Positions 583 to 9,929 of a DNA stretch of 35,737 nucleotides are shown in pieces. The stretch's first letter is position 1. Every line of letters begins with the position of its first letter. Made by a program: the position numbers and the translations under genes. This DNA comes from a virus (lineage: Duplodnaviria > Heunggongvirae > Uroviricota > Caudoviricetes), in the IMG/VR virus record IMGVR_UViG_2700989400_000002, one strand, 5' to 3'. Under the pieces are notes generated by a model. It searched no databases, was not told the origin of the DNA, and was given only the letters and a program-made list of their open reading frames with translations.

Positions 583-1596
583 TTACTCTACTGTGGACAC
601 TGTGTGGACACTCTCGGCTTCAGTACCACCTCTTAGCGGATTAAGAGAAATGGCGTCCTGAAGGTACTCTGGCGCAAAATGAGCGTAAACCATAGTTTGC
701 TCAATCCGCGTGTGACCTAGTATCCGTTGTAGCGTGATAATACTTCCTCCATTAATCATGAAATGAGTGGCAAAGCTGTGCCTTAGTGCATGTGTGGCTT
801 GCCCCGTTGGCAAATCCGGTTTTATTGCTTTCATTGTTCGTCTGAAGCGAGGGTAATCAGCATCAGGGAATAAAAAACCTCGTTTGTTATCCGCGATCAT
901 TTTGGCAACAGCCTCTGAGATCGGGACGGTGCGTGGTTTGTTTGTTTTCGTTTTAACAAACGTGACGCGGTTATGGATGATATTTTCTGCTTTCAAACGA
1001 GCTGCTTCTCCCCAACGTGCTCCTGTACTCAGGCAAAGAATCGCAATCTTTTTATTGTCGCCGTCAAGTGCTGCAAGCAGTAAGGCAATTTCTTCCTGTG
1101 TGAGATAGCCTGTTTCTGGTTTTTCCTCCTTAAGCCTCTTTGTCCCTCTGATAGGGTGCTCACCAAAGAATAACTCCGCTTCAATCAGGGCTGTAAACAT
1201 GCCGCTAATACATGTTAAATCACGATTGATACTCGAAGGTTTAATACCCTGACTTCTTCGGGTGGCGCAGTACTGGCTGATAAGGGATTTCGTGATTTGA
1301 AATGCGCATGGGTCATTCGTTATTTTTGTGAAGATTTCAATTTTTCCAAGATTAGATTTCCCATGCTCTTCGTGTTTACCCTTTAAATCCCACCAGATCT
1401 GTGTCAGTTCCGACAGACGTCGTTTGTCTGTTGGTTTTGATAGCCATTCTTTATTGTGGTGGTTGTACAACGTGTATTTTTCGAAAGCGACAGCTTCGCT
1501 TTTCTTATCAAACTTCCTACGGATGCGTTTTCCGTTACGTCCAGTAGGGCGGATGTCCACTTCATATCGACCATCATCGAGTTTTTTGATTGCCAT
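583..1596 (-). CDS. int: tyrosine integrase, P2 Int-like (337 aa)
   Basis: 337 aa as in P2 Int; C-terminal HxxR...Y catalytic motifs (HALRHSFATH, MVYAHF); adjacent to att core. Confidence 0.9.
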   Translation of the reverse strand: MAIKKLDDGRYEVDIRPTGRNGKRIRRKFDKKSEAVAFEKYTLYNHHNKEWLSKPTDKRRLSELTQIWWDLKGKHEEHGKSNLGKIEIFTKITNDPCAFQITKSLISQYCATRRSQGIKPSSINRDLTCISGMFTALIEAELFFGEHPIRGTKRLKEEKPETGYLTQEEIALLLAALDGDNKKIAILCLSTGARWGEAARLKAENIIHNRVTFVKTKTNKPRTVPISEAVAKMIADNKRGFLFPDADYPRFRRTMKAIKPDLPTGQATHALRHSFATHFMINGGSIITLQRILGHTRIEQTMVYAHFAPEYLQDAISLNPLRGGTEAESVHTVSTVE

Positions 1597-3900: not shown

Positions 3901-4172
3901 GTATTCGTATCGAAATTGGCGAACGTTATGTCGTTAGCAGTGACAGCTTTCAGTTTATTCTCCATGAGAAAAAGAGAGCGGAAAGCGGTAAAAACGCCGG
4001 TCAGGAATGGCTGGCGGTGGTTGGTTATTACCCGAAATTAAGCCAGCTCGTTTCCTGCCTGATGCATCACGATATTCTGACCGGAAGCGCAAAGTCTTTT
4101 GCTGATTTAAACGCGCAGGTTGAGCAACTCAGCAGGCGTTGTTCAGAGGCTTTTGGCTCATATGGCCGTTAA
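3897..4172 (+). CDS. hypothetical early protein (91 aa, P2 orf83 position)
   Basis: ATGA overlap with the upstream gene; ends 11 bp inside the A start. Confidence 0.55.
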   Translation: MSIRIEIGERYVVSSDSFQFILHEKKRAESGKNAGQEWLAVVGYYPKLSQLVSCLMHHDILTGSAKSFADLNAQVEQLSRRCSEAFGSYGR

Positions 4173-6447
4173 AGCCTCCGGGCGTTTTGTCCCTCCTTCA
4201 GCATTTGCTGCAGGCACCGGTAAGGCGTTTACCGGTGCTTATGCATGGAACGCGCCACGCGAGGCCGTCGGGCGCGAAAGACCCCTTACACGTGACGAGA
4301 TGCGTCAGGTGCAAGGTGTTTTATCCACGATTAACCGCCTGCCTTACTTTTTGCGCTCGCTGTTTACTTCACGCTATGACTACATCCGGCGCAATAAAAG
4401 CCCGGTGCACGGGTTTTATTTCCTCACATCCACTTTTCAGCGCCGTTTATGGCCGCGTATTGAGCGCGTGAATCAGCGCCATGAAATGAACACCGACGCG
4501 TCGTTACTGTTTCTGGCAGAGCGTGACCACTATGCGCGCCTGCCGGGAATGAATGACAAGGAGCTGAAAAAGTTTGCTGCCCGTATCTCATCGCAGCTTT
4601 TCATGATGTATGAGGAACTCAGCGATGCCTGGGTGGATGCGCATGGCGAAAAAGAATCGCTGTTTACGGATGAGGCGCAGGCTCACCTCTATGGTCATGT
4701 TGCTGGCGCTGCACGTGCTTTCAATATTTCCCCTCTCTACTGGAACAAATACCGTAAAGGGCAGATGACCACGAGGCAGGCATATTCTGCCATTGCCCGT
4801 CTGTTTAACGATGAGTGGTGGACTCATCAGCTTAAAGGCCAGCGTATGCGCTGGCATGAGGCGTTACTGATAGCTGTCGGGGAAGTCAATAAAGACCGTT
4901 CTCCTTATGCCAGTAAACATGCCATTCGTGATGTGCGTGCACGCCGCCAGGCAAATCTGGAATTTCTTAAATCGTGTGACCTTGAAAACAGGGAAACCGG
5001 CGAGCGCATCGACCTTATCAGTAAGGTGATGGGCAGTATTTCTAATCCTGAAATTCGCCGGATGGAGCTGATGAACACCATTGCCGGTATTGAGCGTTAC
5101 GCCGCTGCAGAGGGTGATGTGGGGATGTTTATCACGCTGACCGCGCCGTCAAAGTATCACCCGACACGTCAGGTCGGAAAAGGCGAAAGTAAAACCGTGC
5201 AGCTTAATCACGGCTGGAACGATGAGGCATTTAATCCAAAGGATGCGCAGCGTTATCTCTGCCGTATCTGGAGCCTGATGCGCACGGCATTCAAGGATAA
5301 TGATTTACAGGTCTACGGTTTGCGAGTCGTCGAGCCACACCATGACGGAACGCCGCACTGGCATATGATGCTTTTTTGTAATCCACGCCAGCGTAACCAG
5401 ATTATCGAAATCATGCGTCGCTATGCGCTCAAAGAGGATGGTGACGAAAGAGGAGCCGCGCGAAACCGTTTTCAGGCAAAACACCTTAACCGGGGCGGTG
5501 CTGCGGGATATATCGCGAAATACATTTCAAAAAACATCGACGGCTATGCACTGGATGGTCAGCTCGATAACGACACCGGCAGGCCGCTGAAAGACACTGC
5601 AGCGGCTGTTACCGCATGGGCGTCAACGTGGCGCATCCCGCAATTTAAAACGGTTGGCCTGCCGACAATGGGGGCTTACCGTGAACTACGCAAATTGCCG
5701 CGCGGCGTCAGCATTGCTGATGAGTTTGACGAGCGCGTCGAGGCTGCACGCGCCGCCGCAGACAGTGGTGATTTTGCGTTGTATATCAGCGCGCAGGGTG
5801 GGGCAAATGTCCCGCGCGATTGTCAGACTGTCAGAATCGCCCGTAGCCCGTCGGATGAAGTTAACGAGTACGAGGAAGAAGTCGAGAGAGTGGTCGGCAT
5901 TTACGCGCCGCATCTCGGCGCGCGTCATATTCATATCACCAGAACGACGGACTGGCGCATTGTGCCGAAAGTTCCGGTCGTTGAGCCTTTGACTTTAAAA
6001 AGCGGCATCGCCGCGCCTCGGAGTCCTGTCAATAACTGTGGAAAGCTCAACGGTGGTGACACTTCGTTACCGGCTCCCACACCTTCTGAGCACGCCGCAG
6101 CAGTGCTTAATCTGGTTGATGACGGTGTTATCGAATGGAATGACCCGGAGGTTGTGAGGGCGCTCAGAAGCGCATTAAAACACGGCCTGAGAAGACCAAA
6201 CCGTCAGCAAAGAAACGGAAGCCCGTTAAAACCACATGAAATTGCACCATCGGCCAGACTGACCCGGTCGGAAAGAATGCAAATCACCCGTATCCGCGTT
6301 GACCTTGCTCAGAACGGTATCAGGCCGCAGCGATGGGAGCTTGAGGCGCTGGTGCGTGGCGCGACCGTAAATTATGACGGGAAAAAATTCACGTATCCGG
6401 TCGCTGATGAGTGGCCGGGATTCTCAACAGTAATGGAGTGGACATGA
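4162..6447 (+). CDS. A: rolling-circle replication initiator A (HUH endonuclease, 761 aa)
   Basis: ATG at 4162 gives 761 aa as in P2 A; HUH motif (TPHWHMM) and tyrosine pair (GYIAKYISK) present. Confidence 0.9.
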   Translation: MAVKASGRFVPPSAFAAGTGKAFTGAYAWNAPREAVGRERPLTRDEMRQVQGVLSTINRLPYFLRSLFTSRYDYIRRNKSPVHGFYFLTSTFQRRLWPRIERVNQRHEMNTDASLLFLAERDHYARLPGMNDKELKKFAARISSQLFMMYEELSDAWVDAHGEKESLFTDEAQAHLYGHVAGAARAFNISPLYWNKYRKGQMTTRQAYSAIARLFNDEWWTHQLKGQRMRWHEALLIAVGEVNKDRSPYASKHAIRDVRARRQANLEFLKSCDLENRETGERIDLISKVMGSISNPEIRRMELMNTIAGIERYAAAEGDVGMFITLTAPSKYHPTRQVGKGESKTVQLNHGWNDEAFNPKDAQRYLCRIWSLMRTAFKDNDLQVYGLRVVEPHHDGTPHWHMMLFCNPRQRNQIIEIMRRYALKEDGDERGAARNRFQAKHLNRGGAAGYIAKYISKNIDGYALDGQLDNDTGRPLKDTAAAVTAWASTWRIPQFKTVGLPTMGAYRELRKLPRGVSIADEFDERVEAARAAADSGDFALYISAQGGANVPRDCQTVRIARSPSDEVNEYEEEVERVVGIYAPHLGARHIHITRTTDWRIVPKVPVVEPLTLKSGIAAPRSPVNNCGKLNGGDTSLPAPTPSEHAAAVLNLVDDGVIEWNDPEVVRALRSALKHGLRRPNRQQRNGSPLKPHEIAPSARLTRSERMQITRIRVDLAQNGIRPQRWELEALVRGATVNYDGKKFTYPVADEWPGFSTVMEWT

Positions 6448-6899
6448 TGGCAAAAATTCACGAGGTAAAGCTGCACGCAAAATATTTTGACCTTGTGCTG
6501 GAAGGACATAAACGTGCAGAGTTTCGGAAAAATGATCGTAATTATGAGCGCGGGGACACGTTGATTTTGCGTGAATGGGTGCAGGGTGTGTATACGGGGC
6601 GAAAGGTTGAAGCCCGGATAACAGATGTTACTGACCTGTCAGACTGGCTGGAAGATTATGTCTTGCTAAGTATTGAGCTGCTTAATACAGGTGCATATGA
6701 GATTGTGAACTGGAAAGAACTTAGTGAGCGTGGCCTGATATTCAGAATTAATCATGAAATTATGCATCAGCTCGGCCTTGCTGTTATGTATGAACCAGAG
6801 ACGGGGATGTCTGGCGGGGCAATGGTTGCCACGGATGGAGCATGGAACTATTCAGATGAACAGGTGGAGCGTGCACAGCAAAACGGGCGGCTTGGATAA
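6444..6899 (+). CDS. ASCH/DUF3850-like small protein (151 aa), translationally coupled to A
   Basis: ATG at 6444 overlaps the A stop (ATGATG); N-terminal KIHEVKLHAKYFDLVLEGHKRAEFRKNDR...GDTLILRE resembles the DUF3850/ASCH signature from memory. Confidence 0.55.
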   Translation: MMAKIHEVKLHAKYFDLVLEGHKRAEFRKNDRNYERGDTLILREWVQGVYTGRKVEARITDVTDLSDWLEDYVLLSIELLNTGAYEIVNWKELSERGLIFRINHEIMHQLGLAVMYEPETGMSGGAMVATDGAWNYSDEQVERAQQNGRLG

Positions 6900-7105
6900 T
6901 GCACAGAATTCTAGGCGAGATACCGCAGCATAACTCCAAAAGCGCCAAGCTGATGGCCATTGTTCAGCGTCTACAGCAGATTATGGTCAACGAAAATCTG
7001 ACGCCCGATGAGCTGGTCGGGTGTGCCGAAATAGTCCGGGATAATTACGGGCGGTTTAGCTATATCAGTCAGTCCAGAGTTATGCCAGCACCACGCAGAC
7101 GATAG
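6899..7105 (+). CDS. hypothetical small protein (68 aa)
   Basis: TAATG stop-start overlap with the upstream gene; followed by a hairpin. Confidence 0.45.
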   Translation: MHRILGEIPQHNSKSAKLMAIVQRLQQIMVNENLTPDELVGCAEIVRDNYGRFSYISQSRVMPAPRRR

Positions 7106-7109
7106 AGAA

Positions 7110-7148
7110 CCCCGCCAGTCGTGAAACTTGTTTTCAGGGCTGGCGGGG
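7110..7148 (+). terminator. hairpin at end of early operon (stem ccccgccag / ctggcgggg)
   Basis: 9-bp GC-rich stem read directly; long loop and no clean T-run, so a weak terminator call. Confidence 0.35.
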
Positions 7149-7211
7149 TTGAACCACGAGCGCAGTTTGGTGTTAGGAAAATTATTGAAAGAAATATTAT
7201 CAGGGGGTTAA

Positions 7212-7736
7212 ATGCTGTTTCTGTGTAAACCGTTTCAGGAGATTAAAGTGATTACTTTTCAGACTATAAGAGATAAGTATATTGAAATCGTTCGGTTACA
7301 GAGAGAGGAAAAAGAGCGTTTACAAAATATTGTTGGGCTGATTGCGAAAAACTTTGAGGGGTCGCTTGAGCTTGAGCAAACTTGCTGGGGTTATCCAGGG
7401 CAAAATCCCACTGAAAATTATGTTTTTGTCGCTGCAATTAAAGATGGTGAAAAATCTAAAGTTCAGTTACACGATCTGTTGCCTGATGCAGATGGGGTTT
7501 TGTCATTTTTTATTGGTCTTACGGTGGATAAGTCACCGGTTGCTCATCCTAAGTTAAACGTGATTATTCCTTTGAAACTGCTACGTGAAGGGAATTGCTT
7601 TACGCTGGTAATAGGAAGCGGGGAATTCGAAATGAACTTAAGTGAAAAGCCAGCATTGCAAGAGCTTGAGGCTGTATCTGAAGCACTGAAACAAGCTGTA
7701 ATCAGAGACCTTGAATCTTACATTCCGGTGCGCTGA
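7212..7736 (+). CDS. hypothetical cargo protein (174 aa), no recognisable motif
   Basis: ORF with RBS (aggggg); moderately AT-rich; lies between the early-operon hairpin and cos, the slot occupied by tin/old in P2. An alternative GTG start at 7248 is possible. Confidence 0.55.
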   Translation: MLFLCKPFQEIKVITFQTIRDKYIEIVRLQREEKERLQNIVGLIAKNFEGSLELEQTCWGYPGQNPTENYVFVAAIKDGEKSKVQLHDLLPDADGVLSFFIGLTVDKSPVAHPKLNVIIPLKLLREGNCFTLVIGSGEFEMNLSEKPALQELEAVSEALKQAVIRDLESYIPVR

Positions 7737-7899
7737 TAATGTTTGTGGGGGAAAGCGATTTTCCCCGTTTTTGTGTGCGTGCATCAGGTGCATTGTTTTG
7801 CATGTGCCAAAGGCTGTTTTTATGGTCACTTGTTGCCTGTACCGGTGTGGTTTTGACGCCTTCATGCAACTGCATTAAATGTGACCCGCGAAGCGGGCG

Positions 7900-7918
7900 G
7901 GCGAGGCGGGGAAAGCAC
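7900..7918. other. cos cohesive-end site (19-nt P2-type sequence GGCGAGGCGGGGAAAGCAC)
   Basis: Exact match to the 19-nt P2/P4 cohesive end as I recall it; single occurrence in the window. Confidence 0.7.
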
Positions 7919-7991
7919 TGCGCGCAGAGCATAATTGGGTGTTTTGATAATGAAAATGCTTAACACAGTAATTTTCTAAGAGGTGATGATA

Positions 7992-9929
7992 ATGATTGCT
8001 GGAGTTTTTATAAGGAACTTTAAAACATACCAGGGGATAAATTACGTTCCTGTAAGTGATTCATCAAACTTGAGTGGTTTTCTTGGAAATAATGGCATTG
8101 GCAAAAGTTCTGTTTTAGAAGCATTGGATTGTGTATTTAATGATAGTTCATGGAACTTAAATATTGTTGTTAAGAAAAGTGGGTTAGAAAAAACAGAACC
8201 ATATATTGTCCCATTTTTTATCCTTGAACATGACTTTTTTGATAGTCTTCATCTACCATATGCACAAACATTAGATAAAATAGCTAGGACTATAACTGTT
8301 GATGACTCAACAAATCCTGCAACCAAATCGATAATAAGTGATTTTATTCATCATCGAGATAGGATTATTTCCAGAGGGGATGTGGATGGGAAGTTTTTAA
8401 TTCCTATAGGCCAAAACCATGAAGGAAAGATTTCCCTTTCTGTATTTAAGTCGAAGGTTATATCTTTCATGGATGAAAATGAGTTTGGAATCGAGTTTGA
8501 TAATTTGATTGAGTCTGAAGAGTATGTATCTTTATTTCAATCCTTATATATATACATATGTAATGCCTTGGAGTATCTTTATATACCGAAGGAGATTGAT
8601 AGCGAGTCTTTCACAAAGTTAGAAAGTATGGGGACTCAGGTACTCATGGGAGAATCCTTACATAAAATTTTGGATAGGATTGTTGGTGATAGCACTGTTT
8701 CCCAGATTAATAAAGAGTTAAATGGGTTTCTTGAAGATATATCTGGAAAGTTAATTAGTTATTCATATCGCACACCTACAGACAGACAAAAAAGGATTCA
8801 AAAGCGAGAGGTTTATAATCTTATTATAGAAGCCTTCTTCAATGTAAGAAAACTTCATAAAAATCAAGGCTCTGATTATTATCTGGAGATTAATTCTTTA
8901 AGTTCAGGTGAAAAGCAAAAAGCAATTATTGATGTTGCGCATGCTTTATTAACAAAACACCGCCAAGATGGAGGGCGTTTAATTATTGCAATTGATGAGC
9001 CTGAGTCATCACTGCATATGTCTGCGTGCTTTGAGCAATTTAATGCTCTTGCTGAATTGAGCCATAATTGCAGGCAGTTATTGTTCTCATCACATTGGTA
9101 TGGATTCTTACCTACTTTAGATTGCGGTTGCGTAACAATAATAACAAAGAAGGATTCAGAGCATAAGTTTGACTTAATTAATCTTGCTTCTTATCGCGAA
9201 GAGGTCAGGCAGTTAATAAGCTCAACTAATGGGAAAATGCCATTTGATATAAGGATAAAGAGTATCAATGATTTTATTCAGTCTATTGTAACCAGTGCTA
9301 CAGGAGATAATCCATATAACTGGATTATATGTGAGGGTACGTCTGAAAAAGTTTACTTGTCAGATTATTTCAAAGACCTTATGTGCGAAAGGAATCTTAG
9401 GATAATTCCGGTTGGTGGTGCAAAAGAGGTTAAAAGGATTTATGAGCAATTGGCTGCTTGTCATAAAGATATATCTGCGGAGTTGACTGGTGTTATTTAT
9501 TTATTATCAGATACCGATGTACAGCAAGTAAAATATCCAGTTGAGAAGTTGAAGAATATTTACTGTAAAAGAATTGTTTTCGATAAATCTGTGGGGAAAA
9601 CCGTTTTAGTAGATATAAATGGTAATCCTTCGTCACCTGCGACTGCCATAGAAGATTGTCTTAATGGGCAGGTGTTTCATCGAACTTTAATGACATATGT
9701 TTCTACTTATCCTCAGATTAGCTTTATCGCTACAGCACCAGTTAATGATTGTGATAATGAATCATTTAATTATTATGATCTTAGAACTTCTGAAAAGGAT
9801 GCTATCTTGGGTTTTTTTGCTGAGAATAATATGAAGTATGAATTTGCGCTGAAGTATAACTCTGAAAAATGCGATAGTGACTCAGTACCAGATTGGATTC
9901 AGAATGTAAAGGAAACGTTTCTGAAGTAA
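7992..9929 (+). CDS. OLD-family-like nuclease candidate: ABC-type ATPase plus C-terminal Toprim (646 aa)
   Basis: Walker A GNNGIGKS (8085..8108), signature-like LSSGEK, Walker B/D-loop LIIAIDEPESSLH (about 8980..9010), Toprim-like ICEGTSEK (E-G at 9333..9338) and LLSDTD (9510..9518); AT-rich. Start taken at ATG 7992 (RBS aagagg); the ORF track begins at GTG 7983. Confidence 0.65.
   Translation: MIAGVFIRNFKTYQGINYVPVSDSSNLSGFLGNNGIGKSSVLEALDCVFNDSSWNLNIVVKKSGLEKTEPYIVPFFILEHDFFDSLHLPYAQTLDKIARTITVDDSTNPATKSIISDFIHHRDRIISRGDVDGKFLIPIGQNHEGKISLSVFKSKVISFMDENEFGIEFDNLIESEEYVSLFQSLYIYICNALEYLYIPKEIDSESFTKLESMGTQVLMGESLHKILDRIVGDSTVSQINKELNGFLEDISGKLISYSYRTPTDRQKRIQKREVYNLIIEAFFNVRKLHKNQGSDYYLEINSLSSGEKQKAIIDVAHALLTKHRQDGGRLIIAIDEPESSLHMSACFEQFNALAELSHNCRQLLFSSHWYGFLPTLDCGCVTIITKKDSEHKFDLINLASYREEVRQLISSTNGKMPFDIRIKSINDFIQSIVTSATGDNPYNWIICEGTSEKVYLSDYFKDLMCERNLRIIPVGGAKEVKRIYEQLAACHKDISAELTGVIYLLSDTDVQQVKYPVEKLKNIYCKRIVFDKSVGKTVLVDINGNPSSPATAIEDCLNGQVFHRTLMTYVSTYPQISFIATAPVNDCDNESFNYYDLRTSEKDAILGFFAENNMKYEFALKYNSEKCDSDSVPDWIQNVKETFLK

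Follow-up and report, generated by a model that had tools for sequence, protein, structure and literature searches.

The open reading frame at positions 7212–7736 (plus strand) of the window, as the 35,737-nt stretch of DNA analysed here is called, is a real and selectively maintained gene. Judged from the comparison of loci, which shows this directly, it is an accessory gene of the moron type, located in the pre-cos half of the gpA–gpQ hotspot. Its product is tentatively proposed to be a prophage-expressed, non-enzymatic, protein-binding exclusion or defence factor, a proposal to which we give somewhat less than an even chance.

Evidence for a maintained gene

Comparison with alleles from other E. 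coli prophages gave dN/dS values of 0.15–0.22 with dS up to 0.44, and a search of 1.84 billion representative proteins recovered 11 genuine full-length relatives of 157–186 aa. Homologues were full-length down to approximately 20% identity and were present in several genera. The dN/dS values and the full-length relatives, together with a confident AlphaFold model, identify the region as a real gene. A chance open reading frame or a decaying remnant in AT-rich filler DNA would agree with the absence of an annotated domain, the rarity of the gene and the inconsistent start assigned by PGAP, but this explanation was ruled out by the relatives, the fold model and the dN/dS values, and is hardly credible. 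The top matches P0004 (2487 aa) and P0013 (394 aa) were rejected as tandem-repeat artefacts, their scores being sums of many weak stretches.

Layout of the locus

The window contains a P2-like (Peduovirus-type) E. coli prophage with gene A at 4120–6447. Gene A is followed by a DUF3850/ASCH gene (6411–6899, plus strand) and then by a 68-aa open reading frame (6899–7105). In the former the DUF3850/ASCH domain is fused to DUF7415, and the last 37 nt of gene A overlap with this gene; P2 has orf91, of unrelated length, at this position. At the other side of gene A, the integrase reading frame (583–1596, minus strand) is intact and encodes 337 aa, while the prophage of NZ_CM129880, otherwise identical to the window, has its integrase split by an IS3 element. 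Positions 1–318 hold a 105-aa open reading frame of the same length as the host gene yegR.

The A operon ends with a stable hairpin (7108–7150, plus strand; -33.6 kcal/mol, z = -5.97), which none of 200 shuffled sequences equalled in stability and which lacks a T-run. It belongs to the conserved left flank of a variable slot, and this flank is 91–96% conserved in other P2-like phages without the 7212–7736 gene. The cassette begins with an upstream part (7176–7211, plus strand) that includes a promoter-like element and a GGGGG Shine-Dalgarno sequence (7203–7207) four bases ahead of the ATG. The gene itself encodes 174 aa, or 162 aa if translated from GTG 7248, and is closed by an intrinsic-terminator-like hairpin with a T-run (7745–7768, within a terminator part taken as 7745–7778, plus strand) starting 9 nt past the stop codon. 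This closing hairpin, absent from the description in the initial annotation, is common to the UTAK-5 allele, and the homologues in loci L023 and L026 also have a hairpin with a T-run at the gene end.

Between the terminator and cos, TGCAT/TGCA repeats occupy positions 7780–7876. The 163 bp of 7737–7899 include four TGCAT copies, or 24 per kb against 0.98 per kb window-wide, and the repeats align with those that P2 has in matching positions at its right end. Probably they belong to the packaging signal rather than to the 7212–7736 gene. The 19-nt P2-type cos (GGCGAGGCGGGGAAAGCAC, 7900–7918, plus strand) is identical to the annotated cosR of P2 (AF063097), and this sequence was found in every E. 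coli locus carrying the gene. Past cos lies a 648-aa OLD-like ATPase-TOPRIM gene (7983–9929, plus strand), beyond which the portal and terminase genes are on the minus strand.

The GC content of the reading frame is 40.4% (GC3 36%), while that of gene A is 53.6% and that of the whole window 50.7%. The description given in the initial annotation, a 174-aa reading frame with a ribosome-binding site and lower GC than the backbone, placed between the hairpin of the A operon and approximately 160 bp of TGCAT-rich sequence immediately upstream of cos, thus agrees with these measurements. Also its assignment of the position to the tin/old slot was borne out, as in P2 the interval from the A operon to cos contains tin and old, though on the opposite strand.

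Distribution and mobility of the cassette

The gene was present in seven of 5426 complete E. coli genomes, and the flanks of the slot were found in approximately 2100 E. coli records. In other P2-like prophages (L012–L014) the slot is empty or contains unrelated small genes. A 139-aa protein occupying the same slot elsewhere (WP_000212183) was examined as a possible relative and found to be unrelated to the family profile. This presence and absence between collinear phages, the terminator of its own and the deviant GC content correspond to the features by which morons are recognised. The claim that the slot holds an independent accessory gene with its own translation and termination signals was upheld, and an identity as a structural or housekeeping gene is contradicted by the same distribution.

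The same gene, with 96–100% DNA identity, was detected ahead of post-cos cargos of three kinds. One is the 648-aa OLD-like gene, another a PD-T4-4 A+B pair (PADLOC model, E = 1.6e-111), and the third combines a HEC-02-like ATPase and a second gene of unknown type. Homology between these loci stops a few bases past cos. An allele with 86% identity is located in a different P2-like backbone with an 824-aa gpA, and its neighbour is a RosmerTA-like pair (RmrA) without an ATPase. In the locus of this allele, homology to the window starts approximately 35 nt before the ATG and stops at the stop codon, which delimits the mobile unit as a single gene with a short upstream region. As far as can be read from the compared sequences, the loci show that the cassette moves as one gene between accessory slots of unrelated temperate phages.

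Relatives in other phages

The window protein matched the family phrog_5091 (E = 3.5e-14, 53.9 bits), residues 13–169 aligning with profile positions 2–157 of 164. Each of the 16 aligned relatives matched this family exclusively, the lowest E being 3.6e-33. The match is full-length. Temperate phages of Pseudomonas and P88-like phages of E. coli are among the sources of family members. The family itself lacks a name and a Pfam model, and no function is assigned to any member; neither the protein accessions nor phrog_5091 turned up in full-text literature searches. In comparison to the rest of the family, the window protein represents a rare enterobacterial branch with a 12-residue N-terminal extension. 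A tblastn search with the window protein against 50,697 phage records produced no match, and the homologues in phage records were recovered only when distant family members were used as queries. The profile search of genome contigs with the narrow alignment yielded no confirmed locus.

The relatives are situated in accessory positions of several phage types. P0006 (42% identity) is encoded ahead of the sheath gene FI in another P2-like prophage, and a P0005-like protein (47%) in a Mu-like phage behind Mor and its terminator. P0008 (29%) is placed in an HK97-like prophage in the interval from the lysis region to HNH/terminase, and has its own terminator. In a Limnobaculum lambdoid prophage, P0014 (24%) lies past Q and tRNA-Asn, between HicAB and Phd/Fic pairs, and in 12 Pseudomonas temperate phages the vB_Pae_* proteins (21%) are encoded past NinG and a tRNA and before the holin. 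The Halopseudomonas relatives P0011 and P0016 (23% and 21%) are at a prophage edge.

Both the Limnobaculum and the vB_Pae homologues are located between Q/NinG and the lysis genes, directly 3' of a phage tRNA gene (positions 7821–7895 of the Limnobaculum locus L006 and 6333–6436 of the Pseudomonas locus L032). The tRNA upstream is Asn in Limnobaculum and a Gly pseudo-tRNA in Pseudomonas vB_Pae. In Stx phages the region past Q and the tRNA is the slot of stx. In the P2-like prophage of GCA_009821085 (L026, 1–8700), the FI–U tail block and the genes D and ogr are on opposite strands, which differs from P2, and the phrog_5091 homologue is at the FI/D junction.

A more distant paralogue, WP_000236495, was identified with hhalign against the family profile (probability 98.9%, E = 1.8e-17, 19% identity). 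It was present in 397 of 5426 E. coli genomes (7%), and in P88-like prophages a gap of 15 bp separates its gene (5001–5525 in both L031 and L033) from the end of the portal gene. Its usual company is a DUF4760 gene and a ParM/StbA and Plasmid_stab_B partition module. The two proteins have the same length (174 aa) and occupy the same gpA–gpQ hotspot, the paralogue next to gpQ. In contrast to the window gene, that of the paralogue is common, lies against the portal gene and accompanies a partition module; its product, too, is named 'hypothetical'. Both proteins are listed in Table S5A of PMC9122126 under that label alone, WP_000236495 at least 167 times, and there is no sign in that paper of an assay on either of them.

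Protein features and predicted fold

The AlphaFold model of the window protein, based on the 16-sequence alignment, reached a pLDDT of 91.9 and a pTM of 0.85, and a second run a pLDDT of 89.0. The predicted fold has an N-terminal helix of approximately 36 residues, a six-stranded antiparallel sheet and a C-terminal helix of approximately 20 residues. The pI of the protein is approximately 5.1, and the whole family is mildly acidic (pI 4.5–5.8).

Searches of Pfam, NCBIfam and PADLOC gave nothing meaningful for the window protein or its 16 relatives. The initial annotation had reported no recognisable ATPase, nuclease, zinc-finger or membrane motif, and this was reproduced: Walker A, CxxC and H..H motifs are all lacking in the window protein, and so are secretion signals and membrane segments. 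The highest 19-residue Kyte-Doolittle mean is 1.26, on account of which a membrane segment is not expected. The invariant or near-invariant residues of the family are L52, Y70, V71, F99, P113 and K114, and the LTVDKSP...PK loop is also among the best-conserved positions. These positions do not look catalytic.

In a profile search of the PDB sequences the top match was at noise level (E = 0.27), and Foldseek found no match at E ≤ 1e-3 in PDB and BFVD. The nearest folds were the FP domains of PI31 and Fbxo7, capping protein and type III secretion chaperones. The structural comparison scores were 6.8 for capping protein, 6.6 for the Fbxo7 FP domain, 5.7 for P1 DarA, approximately 4.9 for type III secretion chaperones, 4.7 for AcrIIA11 and 4.4 for PsiB. 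All the proteins near in shape are small alpha/beta protein-binding modules with 6–13% identity to the window protein. With neither sequence homology nor strong structural similarity to the FP domain (PF11566-type, PI31/Fbxo7), the window protein does not qualify as a member of that group, and the likeness of the model to FP, capping and chaperone modules is read as a common shape rather than homology. The protein looks soluble, mildly acidic and non-enzymatic, an alpha/beta protein without a close structural relative. The remote-homology and structure checks proposed in the initial annotation connected it to phrog_5091 only, and to no structural or housekeeping phage protein.

Upstream region and start codon

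A candidate promoter is formed by TTGAAA (7185–7190), a 17-nt spacer and TTAAAT (7208–7213). It overlaps the Shine-Dalgarno sequence and the ATG, its -10 hexamer is without the conserved A at position 2, and a consensus promoter scan upstream of 7212 made no call, this element included. A TTGnnA-17/18-TTAAAT element overlapping the first ATG is nevertheless kept in five of six divergent loci, and together with a purine-rich Shine-Dalgarno sequence it recurs ahead of homologues with 29–47% protein identity. The conserved element looks like a promoter, and is treated here as a candidate.

A protein of 162 aa would result from another in-frame start, GTG 7248, which has AGGAG as its Shine-Dalgarno sequence, and PGAP chooses either the ATG or the GTG in different genomes. 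The starts were compared using window positions 7185–7250 and the upstream regions of L016, L022, L023, L024 and L006. A Shine-Dalgarno-like run before the ATG (GGGGG, GGAGG, GGTGA or AGGTGG) is kept in six divergent loci, and in six loci with 24–86% protein identity to the window protein the two in-frame starts are exactly 12 codons apart. These two conserved features favour ATG 7212 and the 174-aa product. The 12-residue extension is, on the other hand, predicted to be disordered and is missing in the most distant family members, which together with the switching of PGAP cuts against the 174-aa reading; also the candidate promoter, if used, would favour GTG 7248. The pattern of conservation suggests constraint on the upstream and 5' region by overlapping regulatory and coding functions. 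Between the window and L016, two sites differ in the first 36 nt and 66 in the remaining 486 nt.

Relation to the downstream OLD-like gene

The OLD-like gene (33.9% GC) matches AAA_15/AAA_21, and its OLD-like TOPRIM domain scored 22.5 bits, just below the Pfam cut-off of 23.2. Its PADLOC matches are scattered over AriA, AbiLi and Old without a clear assignment. The gene has the look of a divergent OLD-class ATPase-nuclease of the single-gene kind, with its insertion point between cos and the portal gene.

The initial annotation had suggested that the 7212–7736 product might be a partner or regulator of this gene, to be recognised by co-occurrence of the two. A partner, sensor or regulator in a two-gene system spanning cos would fit with the adjacency, common strand and low GC of the genes, and with the presence of an AAA_15/21-type ATPase in the post-cos cargo of all seven complete E. 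coli genomes that carry the gene. Those ATPase cargos, however, belong to three different systems (OLD-like, PD-T4-4 A+B and HEC-02-like), all behind the same 96–100% identical gene. The 86%-identity allele is followed by the RosmerTA-like pair without an ATPase, and no ATPase adjoins the relatives in five other phage types. Furthermore, between the two genes lie a terminator and cos, and the homology between loci breaks just past cos. The co-occurrence is thus not conserved, and the suggested partnership did not stand; as judged from these loci it is essentially excluded, and a two-gene system of this kind is very improbable.

Function of the gene product

The proposed exclusion or defence factor would be expressed from the prophage, either from its own weak promoter, by read-through or by both. 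It would most likely act by binding a protein rather than by catalysis, and its most likely target would be a component of a superinfecting phage. Protein binding is proposed because catalytic features are absent and the nearest shapes are binding modules. The role would be that of a single-protein exclusion or defence factor following the logic of P2 Tin, not its ancestry. The gene is not needed for phage development, since most members of every phage lineage lack it.

The neighbours of the gene and its relatives include several of defence type: PD-T4-4, the RosmerTA-like RmrA, HEC-02-like and OLD-like ATPases, HicAB and Phd/Fic. The gpA–gpQ locus is an experimentally supported anti-phage defence hotspot, in which approximately one third of the cloned candidates were active; further cargos there are partition systems and cytolethal distending toxin (PMC9122126). 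That fraction, and the partition and toxin cargos, make the argument from association a weak one. Speaking against an exclusion role, PADLOC contains no homologous known defence protein (no match to PADLOC-DB v2 at E up to 1 for the window protein, and one chance-level match, E = 0.01, for the 16 relatives), and the late-operon position in lambdoid and Pseudomonas phages would suit a lytic-cycle function too.

This position is part of what recommends a counter-defence protein, one that would inhibit an immune system of the host or a competitor, or a host repair protein, and so aid infection or induction. The product is small, acidic and non-enzymatic, the Pseudomonas, Limnobaculum and HK97-like copies are in or beside lytically transcribed late or lysis regions, and fast divergence, patchy distribution and the absence of a partner gene would fit an arms race. 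The copies in P2-like prophages, however, lie behind the early-operon hairpin with their own terminator, as the lysogen-expressed tin and old do, and known anti-defence genes are rare in P2 elements (28 of 1511; PMC13586616). On the strength of this rarity an exclusion or defence role is preferred, and counter-defence is considered unlikely.

The gene might also serve outside phage–phage conflict, as a lysogenic-conversion or host modulator or as a dispensable fitness factor such as an adaptor, chaperone or regulator. The slot past Q and the tRNA that two of the relatives occupy, being that of stx in Stx phages, is in keeping with this, and a chaperone- or FP-domain-like fold, if the model is right, would suit an adaptor. 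The paralogue WP_000236495 accompanies a ParM/StbA partition module in the 397 E. coli genomes, and the hotspot at large holds partition systems and a toxin (PMC9122126). The lack of a secretion signal and a membrane segment argues against a surface or virulence factor, there is no conserved partner for a chaperone to serve, and the gene is missing in most members of every phage lineage. We regard such a role as rather unlikely, if less so than counter-defence, and retain the exclusion or defence factor as the working proposal.

Taken more broadly, phrog_5091 could be a new single-protein, non-enzymatic phage-competition family, acting in defence or counter-defence, with a fold unrepresented in solved structures, borne on a one-gene promoter–gene–terminator cassette in at least five temperate-phage lineages of Gammaproteobacteria and having one branch in approximately 7% of E. 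coli genomes; this is possible, though we would not expect all of it to hold. Many cargos of the gpA–gpQ hotspot are still listed as 'hypothetical', and one such entry is now a defined and testable family, characterised by a confident model, clear cassette boundaries, a single gene independent of its neighbours and a common E. coli paralogue. It recurs in the accessory slots of P2-like, Mu-like, HK97-like, lambdoid and Pseudomonas phages. Should an anti-phage or anti-defence activity prove true, the product would be a small effector of non-enzymatic type, and escape mutants could lead to its target; should it be inactive in both respects, it would mark a class of hotspot cargo with another role.

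Comparison with known systems

In P2, tin and old are lysogenic-conversion exclusion genes expressed in the lysogen, and Tin blocks T-even phages from the prophage via the phage single-stranded-DNA-binding protein. Like the window gene, tin is a single, dispensable gene that has signals of its own and lies in the slot from the end of the A operon to cos. The two differ in length (253 aa in Tin, 174 aa in the window protein) and strand, and they have no sequence relationship: comparison of Tin (AAD03308) with the family profile by hhalign gave a probability of 0.2% and E = 0.34, indicating that they are unrelated. The proposed logic, a prophage protein that would poison a component of another phage, would be alike in both; the observed resemblance is one of position only.

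In architecture, there is a parallel with the morons of lambdoid phages such as HK97 and HK022. The term 'moron' describes a genetic architecture and carries no functional meaning. The window cassette shares with them a single extra gene inserted between genes that are adjacent in relatives, an atypical base composition, a terminator of its own and a candidate promoter.
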